NCBI GenBank assembly: GCA_963828455.1
Contig: CAWHFH010000027.1
Location: 1,896 to 65,895 of the forward strand
Length of the DNA stretch: 64,000 bases
Reading direction: 5' to 3'
Origin: an uncultured Acidimicrobiaceae bacterium
GTDB taxonomy: Bacteria; Actinomycetota; Acidimicrobiia; Acidimicrobiales; RAAP-2
Positions 15,634 to 64,000 of this stretch are shown here, one piece after another. Every line of letters starts with the position of its first letter. The first letter of the stretch is position 1. The translations under genes and the position numbers were made by a program. Below the pieces are notes generated by a model. That model was given only the letters and a program-made list of their open reading frames with translations. It was not told the DNA's origin and did not search any database.

Positions 15634-16294
15634 TCAGGACTCGAGGAACCGCAGCACGGCGAGGACCCGTCGGTGGTCCTGGTCGGAGACCGGGAGGTCG
15701 AGCTTGGTGAAGATGTTGGCGACGTGCTTCTCGACGGCGCCCTCGCTGACCACCAGTGCCTGGGCGATGGCGCCGTTCGAGCGCCCCTCGGCCATGAGCG
15801 CGAGCACTTCGCGTTTCGCGGGGTGTCAACGCGGAAAGGGTGTCCGAGCGGCGGGTGGCGCCGATGAGCTGGGTGACCACTTCGGGGTCCAAGGCCGTAC
15901 CTCCTATGGCGACCCGCTCGAGCGCTTCGACGAAGTCGCTCACGTCGGCCACGCGGTCCTTCAGCAGGTAGCCGATGCCGGCGGCGTCGTCGGCCAGCAG
16001 GTCCGCCGCGTAGCGGGTCTCGATGTACTGGGAGAACAGGAGGATGCCCAGGCCTTCGTGCTTGGCCCGGAGCTCCAGGGCGAGGCGCAGCCCCTCGTCG
16101 GTGAAGGTCGGGGGCATCCGGATGTCGATCACCGCCACGTCGGGCGGGTTCTGCGCGACGGAGCTGCGGAGCGCGCCGGGCTCGGCCACGGCGCCGGTGA
16201 TGGCGAAGCCGCGATCGACGAGGAGCTGGACGAGCCCGTCCCGGAGGATGGCCGAGTCCTCGGCGATGGCCACCCGCAGCGCGCCCGCCATCAT
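15634..16294 (-). CDS. NarL/LuxR-family response regulator, frameshifted between the REC and HTH domains
   Basis: The REC domain (RVAIAEDSAILRDGL..DVAVIDIRMPP..) reads into LSALTPRE. The HTH domain REVLALMAEGRSNGAIAQALVVSEGAVEKHVANIFTKLDL..RFLES* is one frame off. The plus-strand TTT run at 15814-15816 has one extra base. The span is 661 nt = 3n+1. Confidence 0.85.
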
Positions 16295-48704: not shown

Positions 48705-48897
48705 GTGATTCCCTCCTGGATCTCTTCCCGTTGCCCGAAGCATTCCCAACGGGACGAAAACGAAACGCGGGTTGCCCTCAAAACGTTTTTCTGACTTGTA
48801 CAAGAAGCGACGTCCGTCGGCGTCGGCCCCACCGAAACGGAGCGTGACCTGCGATATTCGGACAAGAGCCCACGAGTCCGAGGCTGCCCGGTTCGCA

Positions 48898-48918
48898 ATA
48901 TATCGATAGTCGATATAT
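48898..48918. promoter_or_regulatory. Inverted repeat ATATATCGA-TAG-TCGATATAT upstream of the second padR (candidate PadR operator)
   Basis: 9-bp perfect arms, 9 nt before GTG 48928. The half-site ATATCG is shared with the palindrome at 35093. Confidence 0.5.
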
Positions 48919-48927
48919 AAAGGACAA

Positions 48928-49275
48928 GTGACCGAGTTCCGGGAGCCGACCTTCTTGGTCCTCGTGGCGCTCGCAAGGGACCGCCTCCATGGATACGGCA
49001 TCATTCGAGAAGTCGAGCGGCTCTCGAACGGCAAGACGGTGCTCCGCGCGGGAACGTTGTACCCGACCCTCGATCGCCTCAGCTCGGAGGGCCTGATCGA
49101 GCGTGCGGGCGAGGAGATCGTCGACGGGCGCCTCCGGCGCTATTACCGCTTGTCCGACCGCGGGAGTGCCATTCTCGAGGCTGAATCCAAGCAGCGCGTC
49201 GCCGTGTCGAAAGAAGCTCTCCGCAGGCTGCGAGTTGCGAGCGTCAAGCCGCGTCTGGCGGGCGGTGTTTCATGA
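48928..49275 (+). CDS. PadR-family transcriptional regulator
   Basis: FLVLVALARDRLHGYGIIREVERLSNGKTVLRAGTLYPTLDRLSSEGLIERAGEEIVDGRLRRYYRLS. Confidence 0.9.
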   Translation: MTEFREPTFLVLVALARDRLHGYGIIREVERLSNGKTVLRAGTLYPTLDRLSSEGLIERAGEEIVDGRLRRYYRLSDRGSAILEAESKQRVAVSKEALRRLRVASVKPRLAGGVS

Positions 49276-49567
49276 CGAATCGAGAGTATCGCCTCGCCGT
49301 GCTGCTCTGGGTGTATCCCACGTCGTATCCCGAGAAACGCGGCGACGAGATCCTCGGAACATCGTTCGACAGCACACCTCCGTCCAATCGTCCGGAGATG
49401 GCGCGCGACGTCATCGACGTGCTGGCCTCGCAATCGCGAAGAGCATCACCCAAGCACACGACCCCTCGGGCCGCAGGGGGACTCTGCGTGATAACGGAGC
49501 TCCCGACCGCTCCACCGCGCACCGGCAGCCAACGACTGCCGCCGCGTGTCGACGCCGGCGCTTCTGA
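49272..49567 (+). pseudogene. Remnant of a PadR-associated membrane-protein gene (N-terminal ~100 codons only, also frameshifted near 49425)
   Basis: ATGA overlap with the padR stop. REYRLAVLLWVYPTSYPEKRGDEILG parallels the WYPREWRARYGEEF of the 35485 paralogue. No TM-encoding region follows. Confidence 0.4.
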
Positions 49568-49634
49568 AGGTGTTCTCAGCCGTAGTAGTTGAGGAGAAAT
49601 ACCGTTCGTCCGCGCGGCCGGCGACGTTTGTCGG

Positions 49635-49778
49635 GAGCGGGCGACGTTCTCAGGTTGGGAAGCCCACGAGACTGCTGCGCGACCTGCGGCTGAGTGAAAA
49701 CGCCACCTCAAGGTCGCTCACATCTATCTCCAGTTCCTTCCTGTTGTGTCCTTTTCGCTCTTCGGTGTGGCACGAAAT
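49635..49778 (-). repeat. tRNA-Gly(CCC)-3'-fragment repeat, copy 1 (T arm deleted)
   Basis: Plus strand: gagcgggcgacg|ttctcaggttgggaagccc ... ggtgtggcacgaaat. It aligns with the copies at 52561, 58328 and 58747 and lacks the 15 nt ggaatcgaacccgcg. Confidence 0.7.
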
Positions 49779-49891
49779 CGAGTGAAATGGCGAGTGGCGC
49801 GTTGGGCACGGACGCCCTAGGAATCAGGTTCCGTCGCGAGAAGCGCAACCACTGACTAGAAAAAGACGCTCCGGTCTACAGACCCAGAGAA

Positions 49892-50515
49892 CTAATCGAC
49901 GGGGTCCCCTAAACCGCGCGCCACGAATGTGATCGCCGTCTCCACGAATTCGTCGTTGACCACGTCCGGCTGAAGAACACGCAGTTGGCCAATGCCGCGA
50001 AACAGGATCTCGATGATCCTTGCAGTCTGGAGCGGCGATACCAGGGGTTCGAGCCCCGCTCGCTCTCGCTCGGCTTGAAGAAGGTCCGCCAGAGCCTGAG
50101 CTCCTTCGTCATCGATTCGGGTCAGCTCCTCTCGAACTTCCGGGTTGCGCGCAGCGTAGAGGGAGAACTCTTGATACAGGAGGCTGAAGTTGCGACCAGT
50201 GTCCGCGCTCTGGTCGCGAAGCAAAGCAACGAAGTCCGAGATTCGAGATTCGGGTGGCTCCTCCGAGTCCCTCAGGACTGCTCGAAGGGCGTCCATTTCC
50301 CGGTCGTAGTTTGCCTTGAACAAGGCCAGGAAGAGATCCTCCTTGTTCTTGAAGTTGGAGTAAACGGCGCCTTTGGTGAAGCCAGCGACCGCGGCGACCT
50401 CGTCGAGGGACGTTCCATGGAAACCGCGTTCGGCGAACGCTTCTGCGGCCGCGGCCAAAAGGTGATCACGGGTTTGCTGGCGTCGGCGCTCGGGGGTCAG
50501 GGGCAGCAGGTCCAT
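49892..50515 (-). CDS. TetR/AcrR-family transcriptional regulator
   Basis: TRDHLLAAAAEAFAERGFHGTSLDEVAAVAGFTKGAVYSNFKNKEDLFLALF. Confidence 0.9.
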   Translation of the reverse strand: MDLLPLTPERRRQQTRDHLLAAAAEAFAERGFHGTSLDEVAAVAGFTKGAVYSNFKNKEDLFLALFKANYDREMDALRAVLRDSEEPPESRISDFVALLRDQSADTGRNFSLLYQEFSLYAARNPEVREELTRIDDEGAQALADLLQAERERAGLEPLVSPLQTARIIEILFRGIGQLRVLQPDVVNDEFVETAITFVARGLGDPVD

Positions 50516-50555
50516 AGGGTTGCGCTACCGCCCAGCATAGTAAATACTGAATGGT

Positions 50556-51572
50556 ATGGAGGATTCCCAGAAGTATTTATCTGACGGACCAGCCGGGTGG
50601 CAATCGGGAGCTGGGCCCTTCACTGCGGCGGTCCAGGCCACGGGGTTGGTCCGTCGTTTCGGCTCAACGGTCGCGGTCGATGGACTCAATCTGCAGGTCC
50701 GGCGAGGGGAGATCTACGGCTTCCTCGGTCCAAACGGGGCGGGAAAATCCACCGTCGTGCGCATCTTGTGCACGCTGTTGCGACCCAGCGCCGGGACGGC
50801 GTGGGTGGCCGGCTACGACGTCACAGAGGATCCCCAGTCTGTTCGCGTCCGGATCGGTGTCGCCCTTCAGGACGCCGCGCTCGACGATCGACAATCCGGC
50901 CGCGAGCTGCTCTCGCTTCAGGGCCGGCTCTACGGGCTGAGTGCGGCGCAGATCCGAGCCCGAGTCGGCGACGTCCTCGATCTGGTCGACATCGGCTCAG
51001 CCATCGATCGGCGCATCGGCACCTACTCGGGCGGAATGAAGCGGCGGCTCGACCTCGCGGCGGCGCTGGTCCACAACCCTGAGGTCCTGTTTCTCGACGA
51101 GCCCACCACCGGGCTCGACCCCCACAGCCGAGCAGCGGTCTGGTCCGAGGTGACGAGGCTGAACCGCGAGCTCGGCATGACGATCCTCCTCACGACGCAA
51201 TATCTCGACGAAGCGGACACCCTGGCCGACCGGGTAGGCATCATCTCGTCCGGGCGCTTGGTGGCAGAGGGCACTCCGAAAGCCCTCAAGCACTCCGTGG
51301 GCCATGACGTGGTCGTTGCCGAAGTCGAGGGCAACGGCGCCAAGGCACTGGATGCTCTCGGTTCCCTCGAAGGGCTCGAGCCGGCATGGAATGCAGACGG
51401 CATCCTCACGGTGAGCGCTCCGGACGGCGCGGCAGCCCTTGGCACGGTAGCGGTGACGCTCGGCCAAGTGGGCCTGCAAATCAAAAGCCTCAGCATGCGC
51501 ACCCCCACCTTGGACGACGTCTTCATGGCGATGACGGGATCTCGCATCGAACAAAGCGAAGCGCTCCTGTGA
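50556..51572 (+). CDS. ABC transporter ATP-binding protein (DrrA-like)
   Basis: Walker A GPNGAGKST, signature YSGGMKRR, Walker B LFLDEPTTGLDP. Divergent from tetR across only 40 nt. Confidence 0.9.
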   Translation: MEDSQKYLSDGPAGWQSGAGPFTAAVQATGLVRRFGSTVAVDGLNLQVRRGEIYGFLGPNGAGKSTVVRILCTLLRPSAGTAWVAGYDVTEDPQSVRVRIGVALQDAALDDRQSGRELLSLQGRLYGLSAAQIRARVGDVLDLVDIGSAIDRRIGTYSGGMKRRLDLAAALVHNPEVLFLDEPTTGLDPHSRAAVWSEVTRLNRELGMTILLTTQYLDEADTLADRVGIISSGRLVAEGTPKALKHSVGHDVVVAEVEGNGAKALDALGSLEGLEPAWNADGILTVSAPDGAAALGTVAVTLGQVGLQIKSLSMRTPTLDDVFMAMTGSRIEQSEALL

Positions 51573-52369
51573 CCGTGACCGCCGTCCACAGCGTTGAGGC
51601 GCTCGGACGAGAGGCTGGTTTCGTCCACGACATCCGAGCCGTCGCCGGCCGGGCTCTCCGCCAAATTCCGCGGGAACCCGCGGCGGTCCTTCCGGCCGTA
51701 TTCGTCCCGGCGTTCTTCTACGCGGTCAACCTCGGCGCGCTCGAGAAGCTGGCCGGCACAGCCCTCGACTACAAGTCCTTCCTTCTGCCCATGGCGATTG
51801 CCTTTGCCGTGACGGGAATGTCCAGGGCGCCAGCACTCGTGACCGATATCCAGGGCGGGTACTTCGACCGACTCTGTATGACCCCGATCAGGCGTTCTGC
51901 CCTGCTTCTCGGCCTCATGGTGGCCGACGTTGCGGTGATCGCGGCACTGTGCCTCCCGGTCATCGCCATAGGTGCCATCGTCGGCGTGCGTTTTGCCACC
52001 GGGCTACCGGGTCTCGTGGTGTTCGTCGGCTTCTCGGCGCTGTGGGGTTTGGGCTTTACCTGCTTTCCCTACGCGGTCGCACTCAAGACCGGCAGTCCCG
52101 CCGCCGTGAATGCGTGCTACGTGGTCTTCTTTCCCCTCTTCTTCCTCACCGACGCGGTCGTCCCCAAGGAGCTTCTCGCGGGATGGTTCTCGACCATCGC
52201 CACCTACAACCCGGTGACGTATCTGCTCGGTGCGCTTCGATCCCTGCTCACATCAGGGTGGGAGATCCGCCCTCTTTTGGAAGGACTGGCTGCTGTGTCT
52301 GGCCTGGCGTTGGTGGGCATGGCTCTGGCGCTTGCAGCACTACGAGCCAGGATTCGAATGGGAGATTGA
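51569..52369 (+). CDS. ABC-2 type transporter permease
   Basis: GTG 51569 overlaps the ATPase stop (GTGA). Six hydrophobic segments. Confidence 0.8.
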   Translation: MTVTAVHSVEALGREAGFVHDIRAVAGRALRQIPREPAAVLPAVFVPAFFYAVNLGALEKLAGTALDYKSFLLPMAIAFAVTGMSRAPALVTDIQGGYFDRLCMTPIRRSALLLGLMVADVAVIAALCLPVIAIGAIVGVRFATGLPGLVVFVGFSALWGLGFTCFPYAVALKTGSPAAVNACYVVFFPLFFLTDAVVPKELLAGWFSTIATYNPVTYLLGALRSLLTSGWEIRPLLEGLAAVSGLALVGMALALAALRARIRMGD

Positions 52370-52560
52370 ACCTTTAAGCGTTCGAGCACCCGCGCCTCAT
52401 TGTTCTATGGAACAGTTGTGGCGGCATGGCGAACACGCTGCTTCGAGGGGCACAAAATGCACGCCGTGGGGCACGATCGCGTTCTTTGCTACGCGGTCTG
52501 GAGCCGTTGCCGTCCCGACTGTTCCAAAGCTCTTGAGCCCCGACCGGTGCTGTTTGCCGA

Positions 52561-52722
52561 GAGCGGGCGACGGGAATCGAACCCGCGTTCTCAACTCGGG
52601 AAGTCCATCAGAGGGTGCGGCGCGACCAGCGGTGGAGCGAAAAAGGCCAGCGGAACGCATTTCGCACCTAACCGCCGCTATTCGCTGTTGCGCCCTGTTT
52701 CTTTTTGCGTGTTGCACGAAAC
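52561..52722 (-). repeat. tRNA-Gly(CCC)-3'-fragment repeat, copy 2
   Basis: The minus strand ends ..GACTTCCCGAGTTGAGAACGCGGGTTCGATTCCCGTCGCCCGCTC. Upstream is the conserved ATTTCGTGC..GGGCGCAACAGCGAAT..TAGGTGCGAA block. Confidence 0.75.
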
Positions 52723-52986
52723 CGGCCCGGATCCGCTGTTGCACGCCGCAGAGGTGGCTTTCCAGCCTGCAAGCTGAGAAACAGGTCAGTCCCCGTTGGC
52801 AGCGACGACGGCCCCCGTTGAAGTGCGCTCCCGACATGTCTCCCTCAAGGAGGCGTTGCCAAAAGACAACAGTTTGCCCTGCGCTATCTGCCATCCAATA
52901 ACCCCCACCGCTAGGAGCGCGCAGTTGGAACAGAGACCCTCGGCCCGATCAGGGCGACCGAGATCTTTCATGCTGCCTTGCTCGGT

Positions 52987-53688
52987 CTATGGGTTGACCT
53001 CGATGCCCAGGTAACGCTCGAATACGTCCTCGGCGCGGAGGTCGGCGGCGGCCCCCGAGAACACGATCTGACCACGGTTCATGAGGTACACGGTGTCGGC
53101 GAGCTCAAGTGCACGCGTCACGTACTGCTCGACGATCAGCAGAGAAATGTCGCTGGCCGCGACCTGCGACAACGCCTCGAAGACCTGGTCGACGAGGAGC
53201 GGCGACAGCCCGAGGGACGCCTCGTCAACGACCACGATCCTGGGGTTCGTGACATAGGTCCTCACCAAGGAGAGCATCTGCTGCTCGCCGCCACTCAGGC
53301 TTCCCGCCTGCTGACCGAGACGCGTCGCCAGTGCCGGGAATTGGTCCCCAGCCTTCTCGACGCTTTCCTTCTCCTTTCCTTTGGGTGAGCTCAGGACGAT
53401 GTTCTCCTTGACCGTCAGGGAGGGGAATATCCCGTGTCCTTCCGGCAGGTGGCAGAGCCCGCGCCGCGCCAGCGCATAGGGCTTCAGGCCGGTCACGTCC
53501 TGTCCATCGAGCAGCACGCGGCCCGCCATCGGTTTGATCAGCCCCGAGGCCGTGCGCAGTGTCGTCGTCTTTCCTGCACCATTGGGGCCCAGGAGGGCGA
53601 CGACCGTCGAGTCCGGAACCGAGATGGTGACGTCCCGCAGGACCACCGTCTCGCCGTAACCGGCCGTCAGTCGGTTGAGCTCAAGCAC
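52987..53688 (-). CDS. LivF-type ABC ATP-binding protein
   Basis: GTG 53688 (VLELNRLTAGYG..), Walker A GPNGAGKTT, signature LSGGEQQM, Walker B VVVDEAS. Confidence 0.9.
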   Translation of the reverse strand: MLELNRLTAGYGETVVLRDVTISVPDSTVVALLGPNGAGKTTTLRTASGLIKPMAGRVLLDGQDVTGLKPYALARRGLCHLPEGHGIFPSLTVKENIVLSSPKGKEKESVEKAGDQFPALATRLGQQAGSLSGGEQQMLSLVRTYVTNPRIVVVDEASLGLSPLLVDQVFEALSQVAASDISLLIVEQYVTRALELADTVYLMNRGQIVFSGAAADLRAEDVFERYLGIEVNP

Positions 53689-55501
53689 CGCTCGCCCCAC
53701 TCGGCGGCGCGGGATTGGCACCCGGGACAGTGTCGCCCTCGGAGCCCAGATACGCGCTCCGCACGACCGGGCTGGCCAGCATCTCTGCGGGAGATCCCTC
53801 GAAGACGAGTTGGCCGAAGTCCAGCACGTAGATGTTCCGACAGACCTGACGCACGAGCGCCATGTCGTGTTCGACCAGCAAGATGCCCAGGCCACGGTCG
53901 GCGACTGCACTGGTCAGGATCTCGCCGAACCGCTTCGTCTCGGCACCGTCGAGGCCCGAGGACGGCTCGTCCAGCAGCAACATATCGAATGGACCGGCGA
54001 GCACCCGCGCCAACTCGACCATTCGGCGCTGGCCTACCGGCAGCAGTCCGGCTTGGAGGTTGGTCAAGGGCCCGATCCCGGTGAGCTCGATGGCCTCCTC
54101 GACCGCCCTGCTGACGATCGCCCGTTGGGCCGCGGTACTCATCAACTGACGGACAGGGTTGGCTCCGGCCATCGACGACTCCCGGCCCAGGGCCACGTTC
54201 TCCCGCACGGTGAGGGACGAGAACAGCTCGACCCGCTGGAACGAGCGGCCCAGGCCCAGGCGGGACCGACCGGACGGCCCGAGGGACGTGACATCACGCC
54301 CGTGCAACATCACCCGTCCCTCTTTCGGCTTTACCAGGCCCGAGCACGCGTTGAACGTGGTCGTCTTTCCTGCGCCGTTGGGGCCAACTAATCCCGTGAT
54401 GCAAGCCATGGGCGCCGTGAGGCTCACGTCCCGAGTCGCCATGACGCCGCCGTAACGAACCGACAACCGCCGGACCTCGAGCCCATTGGCACCAGGCTCG
54501 ACTGTGGTCGCGCCCGCCGTGACCCGCTTGTCCAGGCGAGCAGCATCCTCCTCCGACGCGGCGGCCTGCACCAGGGCGCGGCGCATCTGCTCTTCGGTCA
54601 CCGCGTGCTCCGGTTGGCGGCCGCCGAGACGATCAAGGAGCTGGCGGACCTTCAACGGTACGCTCGCTGTCCTGCTCGCGAAGACGGCATAGGTTGCTGC
54701 GGCCACACCGAAGATGATCTGAAGGTAGGTGGTGACATTGCTCCCCGTGAAGTAGCCCGGGATGATCGACACGCCTAGCGCGGCGATGAGCGCGTACCAG
54801 GGCTCTCCGCCGATCGCGATGACGACGAGCGCCACGTAGACGAGAGACTCGAACGGGTCGTAGTTGCTCCCGACCGCGTAATGAATTTCGATCGCCATCA
54901 ACGCGCCAGCGAGGCTCGCGAACGCGGCCGAGATGCAGAAGATCGAGACCTTTATGACGTTGGTCGTTGCACCTTGTGTCTCGAGCGCCAACGGCGAGTC
55001 AGCTAACGCACCGAGGAGGCGTCCCATCCTGCTGCGCTGGATCGCGATGATCGCGAGTGTGCTCAGGACGGCCGCGGCCAGCAGTACGTAGTAGAAGCCC
55101 TTGTCCGAAGCCAGCGAGAGACCGAAGACGCTCACCTGGGGCCGCGGAGCCGGGATCCCCGCCGTTGTCAGCCCGAACATCAAGTTGGTCGGGTAGAAGA
55201 GATACTGGAGGAGGATCCCGAAGCCCAGCGTGGCGAGCGCCAGGAACAAGCCAGACAGCCGGATGGCCGGGATCGAGACGATGGCTCCGACAGGCACGGC
55301 GACCAGCGTGGCCAAGAGCAGTGCGAGCAGCCACGGCATGTGGTAGCTGTCCGCGAAGTGCCCGAATGCAGCGGCGCCCACCGCCGCGAACGCAAAGTGG
55401 CAGAGCGAGATCTGACCGGAGATCCGCACGAGCAGGCCGAGCGAAAGCAGCAGGATGGCATCCGCCAGGAAGCTCGCCCAGATGGCCAGGTGGTCGCCCA
55501 C
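53681..55501 (-). CDS. LivM-type permease fused to a LivG-type ATP-binding domain
   Basis: Permease part ..GQISLCHFAFAAVGA.. and many TMs. Then GPNGAGKTT, LPVGQRRM, LLLDEPSSGLD. The first TM and N-terminus continue upstream in the LivH frame region. Confidence 0.85.
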   Translation of the reverse strand: MGDHLAIWASFLADAILLLSLGLLVRISGQISLCHFAFAAVGAAAFGHFADSYHMPWLLALLLATLVAVPVGAIVSIPAIRLSGLFLALATLGFGILLQYLFYPTNLMFGLTTAGIPAPRPQVSVFGLSLASDKGFYYVLLAAAVLSTLAIIAIQRSRMGRLLGALADSPLALETQGATTNVIKVSIFCISAAFASLAGALMAIEIHYAVGSNYDPFESLVYVALVVIAIGGEPWYALIAALGVSIIPGYFTGSNVTTYLQIIFGVAAATYAVFASRTASVPLKVRQLLDRLGGRQPEHAVTEEQMRRALVQAAASEEDAARLDKRVTAGATTVEPGANGLEVRRLSVRYGGVMATRDVSLTAPMACITGLVGPNGAGKTTTFNACSGLVKPKEGRVMLHGRDVTSLGPSGRSRLGLGRSFQRVELFSSLTVRENVALGRESSMAGANPVRQLMSTAAQRAIVSRAVEEAIELTGIGPLTNLQAGLLPVGQRRMVELARVLAGPFDMLLLDEPSSGLDGAETKRFGEILTSAVADRGLGILLVEHDMALVRQVCRNIYVLDFGQLVFEGSPAEMLASPVVRSAYLGSEGDTVPGANPAPPSGASGA

Positions 55502-55505
55502 CAGG

Positions 55506-56483
55506 TTCGGGACAAGGCACAGAACGGACGATGACCACGGCGAACACGGCCAGCCGCACCCTCCAGGGCGCGTACCACGCTTTTCGAACGGGCAGTGTGG
55601 TCACGACCCGACGCTCTGCCAGTCGTGCTTTGGGTGTGACGACCAGGGCAACGAACAGGACGATGAACGGGATCGCCGGGGGTAGCCCGCTCAGCCAGCT
55701 GACCGATACTGCGTACTTGGTCGCCAGCGATCCCGCGATGCCAATGAGCAGGCCACCGAGGAAGGTCAACGGAAGGCTCGAGAAATAGCCGATCGCCGCT
55801 GCCCCGAATGCGTAGACGACGAGCGTCGAGATGATTTCGGCGTTCAGGCTCAGGCCGGGGGCGAGCAGCAGTCCCGCCATGGAGCAAAACGTCATGCTGA
55901 TGACCCAGGCCCACCGCCGCACCCGAATGGGGTTTTCGCCGGTCATCGACAGAAGGTCAGGGTTGTCGACGACCCCGCGCATCGCGAATCCCATCCGGAC
56001 GAAGCGGAAGAAGTAGTACAGGACCGCAGTCGCAATGACCGAAATGATCGTCACCGTGATCTGATCCCACCCCACGTTCACACCGAAGATCGGAACGGTC
56101 GAAGTGGGGAGGAACGGTGGAAAGTTCACTTCATTGTTGCCGTACCAAAGTTCGCCGATACCGAGGACGATGAGCAGGAGTCCCACCGTGGCGACCACCT
56201 TGAGCGTCGCTCCAACCCGCTCGAGGGCACGACCGAGGAGCTCCATGAGCAGTCCCTCTGCTGGGCCAATGACCAGGACGCATACCGCGGCGGCCACGCC
56301 CCACGGCCAGCCGTGTTCGTCGTGCAGCCAGTAGAAAACGAACACGGTCAGGGCCGCGATCGCGCCGTAAGCGAGGTTGAAGATCCCGGAGGTCTTGTAA
56401 GCGAGCACCAGGCCGACGCCCGCGAGGCCGTACACGGCCCCGGTAGCGAGGCCAATGACGATGAAGGGCAGGAAGTCCTGCAC
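55506..56483 (-). CDS. LivH-type ABC permease; no in-frame stop before the LivM part (frame change about 55520-55525)
   Basis: GTG 56483. MQDFLPFIVIGLATGAVYGLAGVGLVLAYKTSGIFNLAYGA (LivH signature region). Confidence 0.85.
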
Positions 56484-56887
56484 CGGTCAGTACCGCACCC
56501 AGTGGTACGCCGGACTGGCGCTCGTCGTCGCTGACGTGAGCGTCGAAATCGTGACGCCCCCCGTGCGTGGCCACGTCCTCCATGAACAGGTTTACCTCCC
56601 GAACGGCACGTACTCGTAGCCGATTGTGTCCGACCGTGCCACTCGCTTGGCGCAGGGGCGGATTGCGTCATCCGGCAGCGGTCCGTCCGCCGACTGGCCG
56701 GTTTGGCTCCTTGGGTGTGATCGGGCAGCGGATTCCGTGCAGACCAGCAGGGAGGCCGGACGGATCCGTTACGAGGTCGTATAGTCCCGAACAGGGGTAT
56801 CACCGCTTCCTGACGGAAAGCCGATTGGGGACACAAAGGGTACGGCGTCGATACGCCGCCTGAACGGGGCCGGAAGGCCCAGGGGGA

Positions 56888-58132
56888 GTGCACGTGACAG
56901 GACGCGTGAAGCAGACGACCATGGTCTTGGCGGCGGGGTTCCTTGCCGTCGCAGGTGTCCTGAGCGTTGCCGTGATGCCGGCCGCTCGGGCAAGCGCCGC
57001 CGGCGCAGCGAGCACGGTCACCATCGCCGATCTGTGCAGCTGCACGGGTCCGGAGGCATCGTCGATCAGCCAGACCTCCGCCACGATGCAGTCGTGGGCG
57101 TCCTGGGTCAACAGCCACGGCGGTCTTGCGGGGCACCAGGTGCATCTCGTGGTCCTCGACGACGGTTACAGCGCGGCCAAGGCCCTGGCCAATGCCCAGA
57201 CTGCGATCAATCAGGACCACGCGGTCGCCATTTTCGACAACAGCGACGAGGACCCGTCGTTCGCTTCGGTGGTCAAGACGGCGAACGTGCCGGTGCTTGG
57301 CGGGCAGGAGACCGAATCGGGCTGGCAGAACTCTGACTTCTTCCCGGCCGGGGCAACGTTCAACTACACAAACGCGGTGGGCACCATCATCGCCAAGGAC
57401 GCCGGGGTGAAGAAGTTCGCCGCGCTGTATTGCGTGGAGGTGAACATCTGTGCACAGTCGGTCCAGCAAGGCGAGCAGATCGCGTCGCATTATGGCATCA
57501 AGTACGTCTACACAGCGGGCATCGGGTTCGCGGCCCCCAACTACACGGCCCAGTGCCTGGCGGCCAAGCAGTCTGGCGCCACTGCGATGACCGTCGGCGA
57601 CGCCTCCCAGATCGTCGAGCACGTCGTGCAGGACTGCGCGGCGCAGGATTACTCACCGCGCCAGCTCTCGAGCGACGGGACGGTCGCCAGCGCCTGGCTG
57701 AAGATCCCCGCCTTTAACGGGAACATCGACTCCCAGTCGGACTTCCTATGGTTCGTCCACAACTCGGCCACCGCTACGATGTACAAGGCGCTCGACAAGT
57801 ACGCGCCGCAAGTGCCGAGCGGGCCGAACTTCGGTGAGATCGTGCTTCAATCCTGGTCCGACGGCGCCCTTCTGCAGGCCGCCATCGAAGCTGCCAAGAC
57901 CACTTCTAGCACGCCCATCACCTCGGCTCTCATCCTCAAGGGCATCTATGGGTTGCCTTCGGGCGAGACCCTCGGCGGGCTCTCGCCGCCCCTGCACTTC
58001 GTCAAGGGCCAGCCGGCCAACAACAGCTGCTTCTTCGAGATGGGCATCAAGGACGCCAAGTTCGTGGTTCTGCACGGCGGCACCACACTGTGTGCTCCAC
58101 TGGTCAAGCCAGGGACAGTGCCAACCTCCTGA
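56888..58132 (+). CDS. ABC substrate-binding protein (Leu/Ile/Val-type PBP1), secreted
   Basis: Signal peptide MVLAAGFLAVAGVLSVAVMPAARASA. Divergent from the livHMGF-type operon. AGGGGGA lies upstream of GTG 56888. Confidence 0.8.
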   Translation: MHVTGRVKQTTMVLAAGFLAVAGVLSVAVMPAARASAAGAASTVTIADLCSCTGPEASSISQTSATMQSWASWVNSHGGLAGHQVHLVVLDDGYSAAKALANAQTAINQDHAVAIFDNSDEDPSFASVVKTANVPVLGGQETESGWQNSDFFPAGATFNYTNAVGTIIAKDAGVKKFAALYCVEVNICAQSVQQGEQIASHYGIKYVYTAGIGFAAPNYTAQCLAAKQSGATAMTVGDASQIVEHVVQDCAAQDYSPRQLSSDGTVASAWLKIPAFNGNIDSQSDFLWFVHNSATATMYKALDKYAPQVPSGPNFGEIVLQSWSDGALLQAAIEAAKTTSSTPITSALILKGIYGLPSGETLGGLSPPLHFVKGQPANNSCFFEMGIKDAKFVVLHGGTTLCAPLVKPGTVPTS

Positions 58133-58185
58133 TCGCATCCATCCGTCTCTCCCGCCCACGAACCCGACGATGTTCGCGTGAGGCT

Positions 58186-58248
58186 GAGAACCCGCGTTTC
58201 AGTCGCGGCCGATTTCTGTCATTGCTGTGGGACGCGTGTGCACGAACG
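58186..58248 (-). repeat. Short degenerate copy of the tRNA-fragment repeat (internal part missing)
   Basis: gagaacccgcgtttcag .. gcgtgtgcacgaacg resembles both ends of the longer copies (gaacccgcgttctca .. gcgtgttgcacgaaac). Confidence 0.35.
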
Positions 58249-58327
58249 CCCATTTGCAAGGGTTCTGCAGCGAGTCGAGAGCGAATTCTTCCGACGAGAA
58301 GATCTCGTGACCTGCGAGGTCTGCCGA

Positions 58328-58486
58328 GAGCGGGCGACGGGAATCGAACCCGCATTCTCAGCTTGGGAAGCTGACGGGGGAAGGTTGCGCCACCTGCCGA
58401 CAAGGAATGCTCAGCTGAAAGGCCATTCGCACTTAACTGTTGCTGTCCCTGTTGCGCCCCTTCTGTCGCTGCTTGGGGCACGAAAT
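58328..58486 (-). repeat. tRNA-Gly(CCC)-3'-fragment repeat, copy 3 (best-preserved tRNA part)
   Basis: Minus strand: TCAGC-TTCCCAA-GCTGA / GAAT / GCGGG-TTCGATT-CCCGT / CGCCCGC-T. The preceding 27 nt cannot form an acceptor 5' strand or a D arm. Confidence 0.8.
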
Positions 58487-58535
58487 AGCGCCAATTCGGC
58501 AAGGGCACACTGGGGCACGCCTGTCCGGATAGACC

Positions 58536-58740
58536 TCAGCCCTTGACGGCGAAGAGTGTCCAGCTGCCCGGCACGCCCTTGAGCTCGTGCTCACCTCGAT
58601 CCTCGAATTCGATGCCGGATCCGGCGACAAGATCTGTCACGGTGCGTGAGACGAGTACCTCGTCGGGCCGAGCAAGGGAGGAAACCCTGCTGCCGATGTG
58701 CACCGCGATCCCCGTGATGTCGTTCTCCATCGTTTCGACT
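58536..58740 (-). pseudogene. C-terminal fragment of a class III adenylate/guanylate cyclase-domain gene
   Basis: [61 protein letters not shown]. No upstream catalytic part is present. The reading frame runs straight into the truncated repeat copy. Confidence 0.6.
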
Positions 58741-58746
58741 TCACCG

Positions 58747-58904
58747 ATCGAACCCGCGTTCTCAGCTTGGGAAGCCCATCGGTGGTGACCTCGCGATCTG
58801 CGGTTTCGCATAAAGACCCAGCTGGAGCACTATCCGCACCTATTCGGTGATATTCGCTGTTGCCCCCTTTTTGCTCTCGCGGGTGGCACGAAATGACCTC
58901 AATG
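58747..58904 (-). repeat. tRNA-Gly(CCC)-3'-fragment repeat, copy 4 (acceptor end truncated)
   Basis: Plus strand: atcgaacccgcgttctcagcttgggaagc ... attcgctgttgcccccttttt..gggtggcacgaaat. The acceptor-strand bases are replaced by the cyclase fragment. Confidence 0.7.
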
Positions 58905-58967
58905 TGGGAAGTGGCACGGAGACCGTCACCGTTCTCAGCCACCAGGGCAGAGACCGCGGCTAGCGGG

Positions 58968-60325
58968 TCAAAGATTCGCCGGGGTCCAACTACGCCCCCC
59001 GTCGGAGGTAGTCGTTAGGACCGGATAGCAGTTGTAATCCGGCTGATCCGCGACCGCCTTGCTGAAACAGACAGGATTCTGTTCGATCGCCAAGCCGAAG
59101 CTCGGCGATGCGAAAGTGACACCCTCGACGTCGCCTACACCGACAGCGGGGGTCGGTTTGAAGGATTGCCAGGTCTGCCCGGCATCCGTCGTCTCGTACA
59201 GCCTCGAACCGACGTCGATCCTCCACTGCAGAGGACCCATGGCCGCGAAGCGAGTTGCCACACTCCCTGGTTGGAACTGGGAACCTTCGAATACCGGGAT
59301 GGGATAACCGGTCCAAGTCGCCCCGCCGTCATTGGTGACGTAGATCACGGGATCCTTGTCGTAGTCGGTGCCTTTCGTCGCCAAGGTCACGGCATCTTGG
59401 GTACCGAAGAATGCCGGCAGTGTGTACTGGAGGCCGATTGGAAGGGCGGCAACCGCCGACCAGGAGCGACCACCGTCCGTGGTGCGATAGATGGCTCCAC
59501 CGGGAACCTGCTGCTGCTGGTTGTACGTGGGATAGGTTCCGGGAACGGCCCATCCGTCGAGATTGCTGGTGAAGACCAGCTGCGATCCTTCGAGAGGCCC
59601 GCCGACTGCGACGCCTCCGAGGCTGGGCAAGGTGGCGATCTGGGCCCAGCTCTCTCCGCCGTCATGGGTCGAAAAGAGGGGAGAGCCTTGGCCTTGGAGC
59701 CCACTGGCGACGGCGAAGCCATTCTGCGCGTCCACCATGCTCAGCGAGAGTGGCCCGCAGTTTTGCAAACAACCCGGTGGAGCGACGAAGGACCAACTCC
59801 GTCCGCCATCGGTGGAACGTTCGATACCCTCACCCCTGCTCGAACCATTGTTGGGCTGCGATACGAGTCCTGGCACGTCATAGATCGCGACCCACAGATT
59901 GTTGGTTCCGATGGCGTCTACGGCGGTGATGTCAATGGAAACCGTGACGCCGTGCAGCGTGGGTGGCGTGACTGTTTGCCAGCTCCGACCCCCGTCAGAG
60001 GTGACCTCCAATGAGTCGCCGGTCGTGGCCCAGTCAAGGCCGCCGTCAGCCACGCCAATCGTCTGTGCGGGTGGGTAGACGGGCAGTGAAGTAGCCGCCC
60101 GCGTGTCCTGCTTGGGTTGGGCTATGGGTGGTGGGGGTTGCTGATGGCGTGTGGGAGCGTTTCTCGGTCCGCTCGAGCCCCGACCGGTAACAAGCACGGA
60201 TCCGATGACGATGGCTACGACCAAGACAACACCAGCAGAAGCTGTGGCCCGTCGACGTCGTCTCGTCGGCGAGCCTCTCTGAAGAGTGCCTCAGCCTCCT
60301 TGGGTGGCACAGCTTCGAGGCCCAT
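58968..60325 (-). CDS. Membrane-anchored Asp-box (BNR) repeat beta-propeller protein; N-terminus frameshifted about 60251-60270
   Basis: Seven S/T-x-D-G-G-x-S/T-W boxes (TSDGGRSW, STDGGRSW, THDGGESW, TTDGGRSW, TNDGGATW, TTDAGQTW, TSDGGRSW). The ORF-track start falls inside the TM helix. ATG 60325 (MGLEAVPPKEAEALFREARRR) is one frame off. The span is 3n+2. Confidence 0.75.
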
Positions 60326-60360
60326 TTCATGGACCTCGGGTTCGAGTAATGGCACCTTGG

Positions 60361-60720
60361 TCATGGCAGCGTTGTGATCATGTCGATCACGTCTTCGCGC
60401 CGGTAGCCGTGTGAGCGGGCGAAGTCGACGAGTTCGTGGACACGACTGAGCACCGCGCCCCGTTGGGGTGTGCCCGACACCGTGATGCCCCGCCCGCGGG
60501 TGAACTCGAGCAGCCCCTCGTCACGAAGGTTGTGCAGAGCGCGGAAGACGGTGTTCTTGTTGACCCCGAGGACGGCGGCGATGTCCTTGGCCAAGGGCAG
60601 CCGGTCGCCCGGGCCCGCTTCGCCCTCGGCGATGGCCCTTCGGATCTCAGCGGCCACCTGGTCGTGCAGGGGGACTGGTTCATCCCGGTCGATGTTGACA
60701 GTCAACATGGTCCTAGTCAT
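60361..60720 (-). CDS. GntR-family transcriptional regulator (short, YtrA-like)
   Basis: PLHDQVAAEIRRAIAEGEAGPGDRLPLAKDIAAVLGVNKNTVFRALHNLRDEGLLEFTRGRGITV. Confidence 0.9.
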   Translation of the reverse strand: MTRTMLTVNIDRDEPVPLHDQVAAEIRRAIAEGEAGPGDRLPLAKDIAAVLGVNKNTVFRALHNLRDEGLLEFTRGRGITVSGTPQRGAVLSRVHELVDFARSHGYRREDVIDMITTLP

Positions 60721-60749
60721 AGTAGTTCTGTGAAGCGATTGGAAGGCCC

Positions 60750-61475
60750 ATGACGCTGACCGATCGGAACCGCCGAGTGGCCGACCCCATGCCTCCCGCG
60801 ACGGACGTCCTTTTCAAAGAGGCGAGGCAACGACGTCGCCGGCGGCGTGTCGGAATGGCCGGCGTTTCCGCCGTCGTCGTGGCCGCTGCGGTCGCGTTGG
60901 GGGTCGTTCTCCCATCGTCTAGTCACGGTCGCTCTGCCAGGAGGACAGCCACAACGACATCTCGCTCGCATTCGGCCACGTCGGGTCCACCAAGGTGCTC
61001 GGTTGGCCAACTTGCGGCGACGGCGGTGTTCATCGGGCCAAACTTCGAACTGGGTGCAATCAAGATCTCGAATACATCGGCGCACGCCTGCTCCCTTTCC
61101 GGTAGACCCCAAGTGGAGGATCTCAACGTGACAGGCACCAACGGGACTGACAGCACGCTCAATACAATCGAACTCCCATATGCCAGAGCGGGATTACCGC
61201 TACCGCCGAAGAGTCCGGTGGAGCTCTCGGCCGGAGGAGCATCTCCACAGGCCATCGTCGAGCTGGATTGGCTTTGGTGCGGTGCGCCACCCGGCTCAAT
61301 CAGTTTCGAGGTCTACTTCCCGAAATGGTCGCTGCCGCTCACGGTCCCGGCCCAAGCGGTGTCGCCCGCAGGGTTCCGGCCGGCAGTCCCGTCTGGGTGT
61401 CCAGCGACCGCATTGTTCGCAGTTGACGTGGTCCGGGGGTTGAACTCGAACGGCCTCGTTTCTTCCACACCTTGA
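60750..61475 (+). CDS. Membrane-anchored DUF4232-like protein
   Basis: N-terminus LFKEARQRRRRRR plus a TM helix. Then CSVGQLAATAVFIGPNFELGAIKISNTSAHACSLSGRPQV, which fits the DUF4232 pattern (C..L...G......N.s...C.L.G.P). Confidence 0.55.
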   Translation: MTLTDRNRRVADPMPPATDVLFKEARQRRRRRRVGMAGVSAVVVAAAVALGVVLPSSSHGRSARRTATTTSRSHSATSGPPRCSVGQLAATAVFIGPNFELGAIKISNTSAHACSLSGRPQVEDLNVTGTNGTDSTLNTIELPYARAGLPLPPKSPVELSAGGASPQAIVELDWLWCGAPPGSISFEVYFPKWSLPLTVPAQAVSPAGFRPAVPSGCPATALFAVDVVRGLNSNGLVSSTP

Positions 61476-61615
61476 ATCTCCGACGAGTAGGAGAACACCG
61501 GGCTGTTCAGCTCTCTCCGACGCCCGTCCCAATGTGGTGACCGGTCCGGCTGTCTCGCGTGCCTCTGTCTGCGAGGGGGCTCTGGTCTGGGACAATGGGG
61601 GTGGAGGTGATCAGC

Positions 61616-62722
61616 ATGGAGGCTGCGGCGGTCGCCGAAGCCCTGTCGGTATCGGTACAGGCGGGAGTCCCCGTGCTGCTCTGGGGGAGCCCCGGGACCG
61701 GAAAGACATCCGTCGTGCGCGCCCTCGGCGAGAGCCTGGGCTGGCCCACCGAGGTCGTGATCGGCTCGATCCGCGAACCGGCTGACTTCGCCGGGCTGCC
61801 TGTCGTCATCGACGGGGCGGTCCAGATGGCCCCGCCACTATGGGCTCGACGTCTAGCAGCTGCGGAACACGGCCTCCTCTTTCTCGACGAACTGACCACA
61901 GCGCCACCGGCCGTACAGGCCGCCATGTTGCGTGTAGTGCTCGAACGTGTGGTCGGCGACCTGACCTTGCCCGACGGTGTCCGGGTGGTGGCGGCCGCCA
62001 ATCCGCCGGAGGAGGCAGCAGATGGGTGGCAGCTTTCCCCGCCTTTGGCCAACCGCCTTGTGCACCTTGACTGGCCGGTGGATGCCAAGTCAGTGTCACG
62101 CGGGCATCGCGCTGAGGGTTTCCTCGTCCAATCTCCTTCGACGGGCAGATGCCAACCGATACGCAAACGGTGGGAGCTCGCGTGGCGGTCGGAGCGTTCC
62201 TCGAAGTGCGGCCAGCCCTGGCGCTCGACGTGCCGGCCGTTGCCGAACAAGCTGGCCGTGGCTGGCCGAGCCCCAGGAGCTGGGAGGCCGTGGCGCGTCT
62301 GTTGGCGGCGTGCGATGCCGTGGGTGCCTCCGAAGATGCTCGGACGCTCCTCGTGTTGGGCGCGGTCGGCGACGGCGCAGGCATCGAGTTCCTCTCGTGG
62401 TTCGCCAACATGGATCTTCCCGACCCCGAAGTCGTGCTCGCCGACCCCGACGGCTTCGAGCTCCCCGAGCGCAGTGACCGCGGCCTTCGCGGTGCTGAGC
62501 GCAGTCGCCGCGGTGGCCATCAGCCGGGGGGACCGCGAATCGTGGACGGCGGCATGGAGGGTGGTCGAGCGGGTGGCGGACCAGGCGCCCGACGTGGCCG
62601 CGCTGGCCGCGCGGAGCTTGGCCAACGCCCGCCCGGAGGGAGCCGCGTTGCCCAGCGGCCTGCTCAAGATGGCCCCCGTGTTGCGGGCAGCCGGGCTGAT
62701 CCGAACCGATGGTGAGTCGTGA
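61616..62722 (+). CDS. MoxR-like AAA+ ATPase (AAA_5 type) with two compensating frameshifts (about 62116-62150 and 62476-62485)
   Basis: GGAGGTGA lies 5 nt upstream of ATG 61616. Walker A GSPGTGKTS, Walker B LLFLDELT, VVAAANP. The middle segment (..VGAFLEVRPALALDVP..GWPSPRSWEAVARLLAA..DLPDPEVVLADPDGFELPERSDR) is in ORF 62149..62715's frame. Confidence 0.8.
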   Translation: MEAAAVAEALSVSVQAGVPVLLWGSPGTGKTSVVRALGESLGWPTEVVIGSIREPADFAGLPVVIDGAVQMAPPLWARRLAAAEHGLLFLDELTTAPPAVQAAMLRVVLERVVGDLTLPDGVRVVAAANPPEEAADGWQLSPPLANRLVHLDWPVDAKSVSRGHRAEGFLVQSPSTGRCQPIRKRWELAWRSERSSKCGQPWRSTCRPLPNKLAVAGRAPGAGRPWRVCWRRAMPWVPPKMLGRSSCWARSATAQASSSSRGSPTWIFPTPKSCSPTPTASSSPSAVTAAFAVLSAVAAVAISRGDRESWTAAWRVVERVADQAPDVAALAARSLANARPEGAALPSGLLKMAPVLRAAGLIRTDGES

Positions 62723-64000
62723 TCTTGGGTCGGATCGAGCGGCTCGGAGTTGATCAGCGCCGCGTCTGGTCCGCCGCACGAGTGTGGGCTGCGCACCAAG
62801 CTCCGTACATGGCGAGCGCGCTACTGGCCCTCGACCCCGTGGTAGTGGACCAGTCCGAGGAGCCGCCCCAGGCCCGTTTCGACCTCAGCGCGTTGCCCGT
62901 CGACGACGAATGGCACGTCTACCTCGACCCTGAGGTGCTGAGCGCCAGCGACATCCACTCCGCAGGGTTCTGGCTCATCCACCAGGTGAGCCATCTCCTC
63001 CGTCACCATGCGGAGCGATCCTTGGCGGGAGGCGATGACGCGTCGGAGGGGCCGCTGACACGACGCACTGATGCTCAGCGCGGTTGGAACGTCGCGGCCG
63101 ATTGCGAGATCAACGACGACCTCGTGGCGGGCGAAGCTGCTACGCCTCGCGAGGCCGTCCGACCGAGCACTCTCGGCCTTCCGGACGCCTTGACGGCGGA
63201 GGAGTACTGGGACCTTCTCGGTGGCCGGGCGGAGACGAAGGATCCCTCCAGCAACGATGTGAACCACCGAGGCGATTGCGGCAGCGGCTGTGACGGTGCC
63301 AAGCGGCCCTGGGACAGTGGCTCGCCCGGAGTCGGCCAAACGGGGCGCAGGCTGGTCGAGCGGGACGTGGCTCGTCGTATCAAGGAGCACCAACGCCGGC
63401 GTGGGAGCGTGCCCGCGGGTTGGCGGCGTTGGGCCGACGAAGTCCTCGAGCCCACAGTCAGCTGGCAGCGACTCCTCGCCTCGGCCGTGCGCCTCGGCGT
63501 GGCCGATGTCGCCGGCCGCGTCGACTTCAGCTACCGCAAGCCGCCACGGCGGAGCGCGGCGGTGCCCGACGTGGTCCTTCCCAGCCTGCGCCAACCGCTC
63601 CCCAAGGTGGCCATGGTCCTCGACACGTCGGGAAGCATGAACGACCTGATGCTGTCCCAATGTCTTGGCGAAGTACAAGGCGTTCTCCGTGGCCTCGGCG
63701 TCGGTCGACGGCACTTGCGCATCGTGTGCTGCGACGCCACTGCGTTCGAAGCCCAGAAGGTGCTCGAAGCTCGAGACGTCCAACTGCTCGGAGGGGGTGG
63801 CACCGACATGGGCGCCGGGCTCGCAAAGGCGGCGGAACTCCGCCCACGGCCTGATCTCATCATCCTCCTGACGGACGGCTTCACTCCTTGGCCGGCCGAG
63901 CCACCAAAGAGGATCAATGTGATCGTCGGCCTCATGGACCCCAATGGGGCGGTGCCCGACTGGGCTCGGGCTATCACCATCGGTCCGCCCGTGGCGGCGT
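62719..64000 (+). CDS. Putative-metallopeptidase-domain + VWA-like (DUF2201-type) protein; partial, runs off the right edge
   Basis: My own translation from GTG 62719 (GTGA overlap with the AAA+ stop): ..GFWLIHQVSHLLRHH..WNVAADCEINDDL.. then VWA MIDAS-like VLDTSGSM, GGGGTDM, ILLTDG. Absent from the ORF track because there is no stop inside the window. Confidence 0.75.
   Translation, partial: MILGRIERLGVDQRRVWSAARVWAAHQAPYMASALLALDPVVVDQSEEPPQARFDLSALPVDDEWHVYLDPEVLSASDIHSAGFWLIHQVSHLLRHHAERSLAGGDDASEGPLTRRTDAQRGWNVAADCEINDDLVAGEAATPREAVRPSTLGLPDALTAEEYWDLLGGRAETKDPSSNDVNHRGDCGSGCDGAKRPWDSGSPGVGQTGRRLVERDVARRIKEHQRRRGSVPAGWRRWADEVLEPTVSWQRLLASAVRLGVADVAGRVDFSYRKPPRRSAAVPDVVLPSLRQPLPKVAMVLDTSGSMNDLMLSQCLGEVQGVLRGLGVGRRHLRIVCCDATAFEAQKVLEARDVQLLGGGGTDMGAGLAKAAELRPRPDLIILLTDGFTPWPAEPPKRINVIVGLMDPNGAVPDWARAITIGPPVAA

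Follow-up and report, generated by a model that had tools for sequence, protein, structure and literature searches.

How direct repeats that end in part of a tRNA gene came to stand between cassettes of transporter genes is the question raised by the stretch of DNA analyzed here, 64,000 nucleotides (nt) of contig CAWHFH010000027.1 from an uncultured Acidimicrobiaceae bacterium (hereafter the window, whose numbering is used for all positions unless another locus is named). A prediction made from the sequence letters alone had described four same-orientation copies, each ending in a 3' fragment of tRNA-Gly(CCC), and had weighed two origins: serial integration and decay at a tRNA-Gly, or a tRNA-derived dispersed repeat or small-RNA family. 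Our analysis indicates that the repeats are very probably copies of the attachment (att) site used by a tRNA-Gly(CCC)-targeting tyrosine integrase, left by serial insertion of cassettes. The first of the two origins is thereby backed by the anatomy of the repeat arms and by the linkage of the unit to integrase and tRNA genes in relatives. In the following, the window copies are termed c1 to c4, and loci from other genomes or contigs L001 to L036.

The four copies lie on the minus strand in the same orientation; they appeared as multi-copy direct-repeat families in a repeat search and could be aligned by MAFFT. Their places were confirmed by an independent nhmmer profile built from 16 copies, all from other genomes and none from the window, which matched at 49612-49811 (E-value (E) 4e-27), 52538-52748 (E 1.3e-51), 58301-58519 (E 3.8e-47) and 58747-58921 (E 8.8e-44) and returned no further copies elsewhere in the 64 kb. 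The similarity of all four copies, which the original prediction had put up for testing, is accordingly well beyond chance. A profile restricted to the leader (the first 165 alignment columns, without the tRNA part) recovered the same four copies with E of 1e-14 to 3e-29, and the family is therefore independent of the tRNA-like part. The units proved to be longer than the predicted 150 nt or so, and an additional degenerate copy proposed at 58186-58248 was not detected at E<=10; this piece, with CGTGCACA and GTTCTCAGC, lies within the downstream arm of c3.

The same unit occurs in related organisms. A leader-pattern scan of species-representative genomes yielded 17 loci, nine of which are uncultured Acidimicrobiaceae/Acidimicrobiales metagenome-assembled genomes (MAGs) with the whole unit, the remaining eight being chance matches, and a core-plus-leader scan of metagenomes added four more soil contigs. 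Copies occur only as same-orientation arrays with a spacing of 2-6 kb; at least two copies per 8-kb locus are present in at least L006, L010 and L011, and five full copies lie within 21 kb in L035. When a plasmid collection was searched with 49500-59100 by megablast, only two short ABC-gene matches were obtained and the repeat was not found. Among viral contigs, both DNA patterns gave no match and the integrase search a single match of 23% identity, which was of no use; these viral-contig searches give no sign that would suggest a phage origin.

The anatomy of the unit was determined from an alignment of 20 copies, in which conservation is blockwise, in short motifs. The core (O) of about 44 bp takes in the part of tRNA-Gly(CCC) that starts at the anticodon loop and reaches the 3' end, with a few bases more. 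It is preceded by a leader of about 160 nt (P arm) and followed, where present, by an arm of about 190 nt (P' arm), so that the repeats have either P-O or P-O-P' form. Over the stretch that begins with TTCCCAAG and reaches the 3' end, c2, c3 and c4 share 98-100% core identity with the intact tRNA-Gly(CCC) of L002 and L009, which bears out the predicted block of identity reaching the tRNA 3' end, now by comparison with the intact gene in related MAGs. In L030, L033 and L034, the left edge of this identity falls within the anticodon loop or stem. Counted from the core anchor TTCCCAAG, an octamer, CGTGC(C/A)(A/C)C, occupies three 5' positions (-155, -145 and -117) and three 3' positions (about +115, +126 and +136). 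Its orientation is constant on both arms, and within any one P arm the variant (CAAC or CCAC) is uniform across sites, while matching of the P' and P variants by cassette revealed no clear pattern. Across the window, the octamer shows no enrichment (16 occurrences on the minus strand vs about 11 expected); only its fixed positions inside the units carry meaning, and there the octamers represent putative arm-type binding sites of the integrase.

Following the downstream octamers, a palindrome, GCGCGTTCTCAGC-N7-GCTGAGAAC, contains an inverted copy of the right half of the core (GCTGAGAAC) across a 7-nt spacer. By contrast with the repeats, the intact tRNA-Gly(CCC) of L002 is accompanied by the downstream octamers and the palindrome only, which corresponds to the tRNA-O-P' (attL) form. 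Family and anatomy are direct observations; the layout that they compose reads as a lambda-type att site with a core extending from the tRNA anticodon loop to the 3' end. Such 'anticodon-centred' sites form the commoner class of tRNA att sites in Islander (PMC4383910). The conserved 125 nt or so upstream of the tRNA part had been raised as an objection to integration. This sequence is indeed shared by all copies, but with its phased octamers, and with the same octamer on the other side of the core, it fits the att arms of related elements. The att features of the window are as follows:

49572..49593, minus strand: shortened P' arm after c1, CTCAAC-TACTACG-GCTGAGAAC, assigned by inference from the P' anatomy of other copies
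49612..49811, minus strand: att copy c1, P arm and degenerate core (nhmmer E as above, 20-copy alignment); one intact octamer, CGTGCCAC, at 49767-49774 and a weaker one, CCGTGCCC, at 49804-49811
49633-49661, minus strand: core of c1, with a 15-nt T-arm deletion
52447..52759, minus strand: complete att unit c2, P-O-P' (nhmmer and octamer positions); P-arm octamers CGTGCAAC at 52738-52745 and 52711-52718; P'-arm octamers CGTGCCCC at 52468-52475, CGTGCATT at about 52456-52463 and TGTGCCCC at 52447-52454
52559-52602, minus strand: core of c2, intact
58182..58524, minus strand: att unit c3, P-O-P' (nhmmer, Rfam and octamer positions); P-arm octamers CGTGCCCC at 58512-58519 and 58475-58482; P' arm with octamer CGTGCACA at 58237-58244 and half palindrome GTTCTCAGC at 58183-58191
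58326-58369, minus strand: core of c3, intact
58747..58929, minus strand: att copy c4 (nhmmer); P-arm octamers CGTGCCAC at 58911-58918 and 58883-58890
58747-58773, minus strand: core of c4, cut in the T loop
P' palindrome sites: L002 4165-4192; L010 about 3100-3130 and about 6005-6035; L011; L025; window 58183-58191 and 49572-49593

Two of the four window copies, c1 and c4, are damaged. The element at 49572-49593 equals the palindrome element that is seen at about +150 to +185 after other copies, and this remnant of a P' arm suggests that the array once extended below c1. The original prediction had also stated that no acceptor 5' strand or D arm could be formed. Against this, Rfam aligned a full-length tRNA to c3 at 58329-58397 (31.7 bits vs a gathering score of 29); in favor of it, the D region of this alignment is shortened and ARAGORN called none of the four window copies as a tRNA. 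The Rfam match on c3 is a pseudo-tRNA hit.

Some further features of the site were noted. The P' palindrome in the form GTTCTCAGC-N7-GCTGAGAAC, located about 150-185 nt past the core with a spacer of variable sequence, is laid out like a second core-type site. Just 5' of the intact tRNA-Gly, L002 3975-3988 and L009 5967-5980 carry GCGCGTTCTC and GCGGCGTTCTC, respectively, the reverse complement of the variable-loop/T-stem segment GAGAACGCG; a decamer of these sequences recurs in the P' palindrome, which may be coincidence. At L009 1295-1345, the L009 repeat has a tandem duplication of about 15 nt (TCGCCCGCTCTCTTC) at its core's 3' edge. In L011, ARAGORN called the tRNA-like portion of an att copy (1444-1519, minus strand) as a 76-nt tRNA-Gly(CCC) with the anticodon at position 37.

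The link to an intact tRNA-Gly(CCC) and to an integrase family was observed directly in relatives. In L009, the intact tRNA-Gly(CCC) is followed by a tyrosine integrase gene on the same strand (Pfam Phage_integrase, 7e-26), a Fic gene, an open reading frame (ORF) and the repeat. The L009 integrase has 1162 relatives at E<=1e-30, some named by their sources as from Acidimicrobiia MAGs, and the genomic context was taken for six of these relatives. In L030, L033, L034 and L036, an intact tRNA-Gly(CCC) is followed on its own strand, after about 200-550 nt, by the integrase gene, which with L009 makes five such loci; in L030, L033 and L034, a 3' tRNA fragment comes 3.5-5.3 kb further on. The fragments of L030 and L034 have the same T-arm variant as the tRNA of the respective genome; in L033, where tRNA and fragment both have the standard T arm, the fragment matches the tRNA by its acceptor variant. 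Across all loci, a fragment downstream of an intact tRNA in the same orientation is present in L002, L009, L030, L033 and L034, whereas the window has no intact tRNA-Gly, and a tyrosine integrase adjoins the tRNA or an att site in L009, L030, L033, L034, L035 and L036 but not in the window. The earlier objection that integrase and intact tRNA-Gly are missing is therefore true of the window, but not of related genomes, where the unit is linked to both; a search for an intact tRNA-Gly(CCC) with an adjacent integrase, which had been proposed as a check, was successful in L009, L030, L033, L034 and L036.

The integrase-bearing islands at tRNA-Gly(CCC) in L030, L031, L033 and L034 are 3.5-5.3 kb in size and consist of the integrase gene and between two and four small genes; gene calling gave neither conjugation nor phage genes in these four islands. 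L032, a contig with an integrase relative, contains an ISL3 transposase gene between the tRNA-Gly fragment and the integrase gene, and at 16223-16298 (minus strand) a tRNA-Ile with the anticodon TAT, which is uncommon in bacteria, adjoining an IS110-family transposase gene.

Evidence for site-specific insertion was provided by comparison of the loci. L035 9822-14281 is 98.7% identical to the L009 element, and the P' arm of this element follows the intact tRNA in L009 and the core of an array copy in L035, where an ISL3 fragment splits it. This element has therefore been targeted to the tRNA as well as to a resident att copy. Homology breakpoints located exactly at the 3' end of the core were observed for L001/L009, L002/L017 and L002/L011. 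Variable content beside conserved flanks was likewise seen directly. The flank upstream of the tRNA is common to L002 and L009 (86%) while the inserts differ (TetR and MFS genes without integrase vs integrase and Fic), and window 61565-63115 matches L010 6454-8000 with 82% nucleotide identity, the L010 segment lying immediately next to the first att copy of that genome; here, the MoxR flank is common and the cassettes are different. The synteny check suggested at the outset thus turned out as integration predicts. In addition, the leaders of the window copies are only 59-61% identical to one another vs 65-86% to copies in other genomes, the leader of c4 being 86% identical to the L007 copy. 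The window copies therefore represent separate arrivals and not local duplication.

These data would be explained by a circular element with a P-O-P' site, its partner in recombination being either the tRNA (B-O-B') or an att copy that an array already contains, with the crossover probably taking place in the anticodon loop. Each integration would create one cassette and one extra copy of O with its arms, and repetition would build up the array. The P' arm located 3' of a given core would then belong to the next element, and the window array would have arisen by several events that involved different element lineages.

A low-GC stretch of about 13 kb in the window contains three or more small integrase-less cassettes, perhaps five; here, the guanine-plus-cytosine (GC) content is 0.60-0.68 (mostly 0.61-0.66) over about 48.5-61.5 kb vs 0.67-0.70 outside. 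The gene blocks predicted between the copies (TetR with an ABC-2 exporter, a liv-type operon and a cyclase fragment) agree with Pfam, on which the following assignments are based unless stated otherwise:

49892..52369, both strands: cassette A, TetR and ABC-2 exporter (integrase-less by tblastn)
49892-50515, minus strand: TetR
50556-51572, plus strand: ABC ATPase
51386-52369, plus strand: ABC-2 permease ORF
52987..58132, both strands: cassette B, liv-type ABC importer and binding protein, integrase-less
52987-53910, minus strand: liv ATPase ORF
53681-55501, minus strand: liv permease and ATPase ORF
54999-56483, minus strand: liv permease ORF
56888-58132, plus strand: Peripla_BP_6 binding protein
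58536..58746, minus strand: adenylate/guanylate cyclase C-terminal fragment (Guanylate_cyc positions 113-181 of 183)
58968..61475, both strands: further low-GC block above c4 (Pfam, GC)
58968-60224, minus strand: BNR-repeat protein
60361-60720, minus strand: GntR regulator
60750-61475, plus strand: ORF
61559..64000, plus strand: conserved chromosomal flank
61559-62722, plus strand: MoxR-type AAA ATPase
62719 to window end, plus strand: DUF2201/VWA metallopeptidase-like gene

Cassette B is bounded by c3 and c2, both of which have an intact core and intact arms as an attL/attR pair; its excision in trans is conceivable in principle. Cassette A is bounded by c2 and, as its right site, the damaged c1. 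No identical protein was on record for the TetR or the ABC ATPase of cassette A. With the L009 integrase as query, tblastn gave no match better than E 0.66 in the window, and Pfam identified no integrase or transfer genes in the large ORFs of 47-64 kb. Because no window cassette now has an integrase, the cassettes are probably decayed or cis/trans-mobilizable islets, similar to the cis-mobilizable elements (CIMEs) discussed below. The 5' half of the intact tRNA-Gly is absent from the window, even with up to three mismatches allowed.

The cyclase fragment, which is joined directly to the truncated core of c4, is the remnant of a cassette or flank gene. It is 76% identical at the nucleotide level to the end of the cyclase gene that flanks the L011 array (L011 2-544), and the orientation of the cyclase relative to the att copies is opposite in window and L011, which points to a deletion or inversion at the junction with c4. 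The block at 58968-61475 has a GC content of 0.61-0.65 vs 0.68-0.70 beyond 61500 and is missing from the syntenic place in L010. Below c1, a large ORF (47247-49034) has no Pfam match. Within it, window 47388-47840 shows three staggered matches of 67-71% nucleotide identity to L035 3293-3816, just upstream of the first att copy of L035. The staggering implies an internal repeat, and the arrays may have cargo in common. At some distance from the array, ARAGORN called a tRNA-Ser with the unusual anticodon ACT at 12948-13033 (plus strand), to which Rfam gave no tRNA match even at E<=10; this is probably a false call.

Several points weigh against serial insertion at tRNA-Gly(CCC). The window itself contains neither an integrase (tblastn, Pfam) nor an intact tRNA-Gly(CCC), and the usual flank genes of the tRNA-Gly, such as those for a Fer4/CCG protein and a dCTP deaminase, had no matches in it; the array, like that of L010, therefore lies off the canonical tRNA locus. 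No att copy or remnant was found at the upper end of the low-GC block upon inspection of 61.2-61.6 kb, and the block has no clean lower end. Neither an excised circle nor an empty site was observed. For the more distant integrase relatives, with 65-72% identity to that of L009, the distal repeats match the core only, and the link between the arm family and the integrase therefore rests on one element lineage (L009/L001/L035). The same finding indicates that the arms are specific to an element subfamily, as the distant elements share nothing but the core with the window repeats. Finally, Pfam (E<=5) did not find an arm-binding domain in the N-terminus of the integrase, so that binding of the octamers is a property that we infer.

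Among the alternatives, an integron-like capture platform fares best, although we consider it rather unlikely. Here, the integrase-less cassettes would be the normal cargo, that is, circles with a full P-O-P' site that are moved by one trans-acting integrase. That only about 1 in 14 distinct cassettes across all loci bears an integrase would be expected under this scenario, as would the uniformly small cassette size of about 2-6 kb, the complete arms on both sides of many copies and the targeting of an array copy by the integrase element in L035. Likewise, three species-level genomes share one TetR-MFS cassette at 94-97% identity, next to differing neighbors. However, circles or empty sites were not observed, and the damaged copies (c1, c4 and, outside the window, L006b) are what decay predicts. 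Unlike integron cassettes, those seen here bring regulators of their own and have genes on both strands, and an ordinary model of CIMEs and accretion fits the same facts (PMC5704250). It is equally doubtful that the tRNA-Gly(CCC) att system of soil Acidimicrobiaceae constitutes a standing gene-capture array, with cassettes inserted, excised and exchanged in trans and with arrays possible without a tRNA gene. The similarity to integrons comprises a chromosomal array, recombinase-less cassettes and repeated recombination sites in one orientation. In contrast to integrons, the sites are lambda-type att sites of about 350 bp with a tRNA-derived core instead of attC hairpins, without a consensus fold in RNAalifold, and the cassettes hold several genes with their own regulators on both strands. 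The related integrase scores 38 bits against the 265-bit cut-off of the integron-integrase model, and no integrase is present in the window.

It is very improbable that the copies are decayed duplicates of a tRNA-Gly and its upstream region that arose in situ, with cassettes shuffled by homologous recombination. Direct repeats with common sequence on both sides of the tRNA part could arise in this way, and c3 is a marginal match to a whole tRNA. However, the leader is unrelated to the region upstream of the intact tRNA-Gly, where nhmmer matches start only at profile position 155 or so, and none of the copies has the 5' half of the tRNA. Duplication also does not predict phased octamers on both arms or window copies that are nearer to copies of other genomes than to each other, and a small sample already points to grouping by element lineage rather than by genome.

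The least probable reading, a structured small RNA or tRNA-like RNA gene family of about 160-190 nt with a tRNA-like 3' domain, could draw on the conservation across genomes, the intact T arm of most copies, the Rfam tRNA match on c3 and the ARAGORN tRNA-Gly call on the L011 copy, but is opposed by RNAalifold, which predicted no leader pairs in the 20 copies, an unfavorable covariation term (+0.6) and helices only in the tRNA-derived core, by uncompensated substitutions in the putative acceptor 5' strand, by the lack of promoter-like sites and terminator-like sites at no more than the shuffled expectation, by the lack of any Rfam family other than tRNA on the repeat at E<=1 together with the negative ARAGORN result on all window copies, and by blockwise conservation in short motifs as in protein-binding sites. 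With the same RNAalifold result, a candidate leader hairpin (ATTTCGTGCC / GGTGCGAAAT) was ruled out. The second origin considered in the original prediction, a tRNA-derived dispersed repeat or small-RNA family, is not supported in view of these findings and of the exclusive occurrence of the copies as same-orientation arrays and their similarity across genomes.

The favored reading, att copies left by serial insertion, resembles several known systems. Lambda-type attP sites at tRNA genes are found in actinobacterial phages and plasmids, as in mycobacteriophage L5 at tRNA-Gly and pSAM2 at tRNA-Pro. Features in common with this type are a core identity that spans the tRNA between its anticodon region and 3' end, an integrase gene beside the regenerated tRNA and multiple arm-type repeats on both arms with helical-turn spacing; no sequence relation to these systems is detectable, and a phage or plasmid backbone is absent.

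The original prediction could name no described element that matches; tandem islands at tRNA or transfer-messenger RNA (tmRNA) genes and CIMEs do match (PMC5704250, PMC3146451). Such islands and CIMEs form by site-specific accretion, as in the ICESt1/CIME system of Streptococcus thermophilus (PMC5704250). The elements described here are similar in that they are arranged in tandem with one att specificity, that the bounding att copies include the 3' end of the target gene, that most elements lack integrase and transfer genes while the att sites are kept, and that a newcomer enters a resident's att site. The rarity of integrase-bearing cassettes (about 1 in 14) matches the definition of CIMEs and tandem accretion (PMC5704250). 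The present elements differ from those systems in the host clade, uncultured soil Acidimicrobiaceae, in the target, tRNA-Gly(CCC), and in their very small size, as even those with an integrase span 3.5-6 kb and showed neither conjugation nor phage genes. Moreover, the arrays reach a considerable length (five copies in 21 kb), and any mobilization is putative.

Similarly, 15 ssrA islands of Dehalococcoides without integration modules have been proposed as CIMEs (PMC3146451). In both systems, a single small-RNA gene has numerous tandem islands on its downstream side; every island is delimited by a direct repeat of the gene's 3' end, upstream of which further sequence is conserved, and the island region is low in GC and varies among strains. 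The Dehalococcoides system uses a serine recombinase (DsiB), a 20-bp repeat and the T loop of the tmRNA (PMC3146451), whereas the system described here has a tyrosine integrase, a core of about 44 bp from the anticodon loop and arms of about 160-190 bp with octamer repeats. Thus, tandem accretion of small islands is of a known kind and is represented here by a new family in uncultured soil Acidimicrobiaceae.

With this assignment, an odd 'tRNA-like repeat' becomes a defined att site in which a core is flanked by two arms, with an octamer motif and a palindrome, and this site is tied to a large family of tRNA-Gly(CCC)-specific integrases in an uncultured soil lineage. As att copies were mistaken for tRNAs by Rfam (c3) and ARAGORN (L011b), they can inflate tRNA counts in the annotation of MAGs. 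The integrase and its compact, well-delimited site are a candidate pair for genetic tools in Actinomycetota. For the lineage itself, the arrays mark a hot spot of gene flux with transporters and regulators, and the most noteworthy part is that integrase-less mini-cassettes with complete sites predominate, in arrays of five or more.

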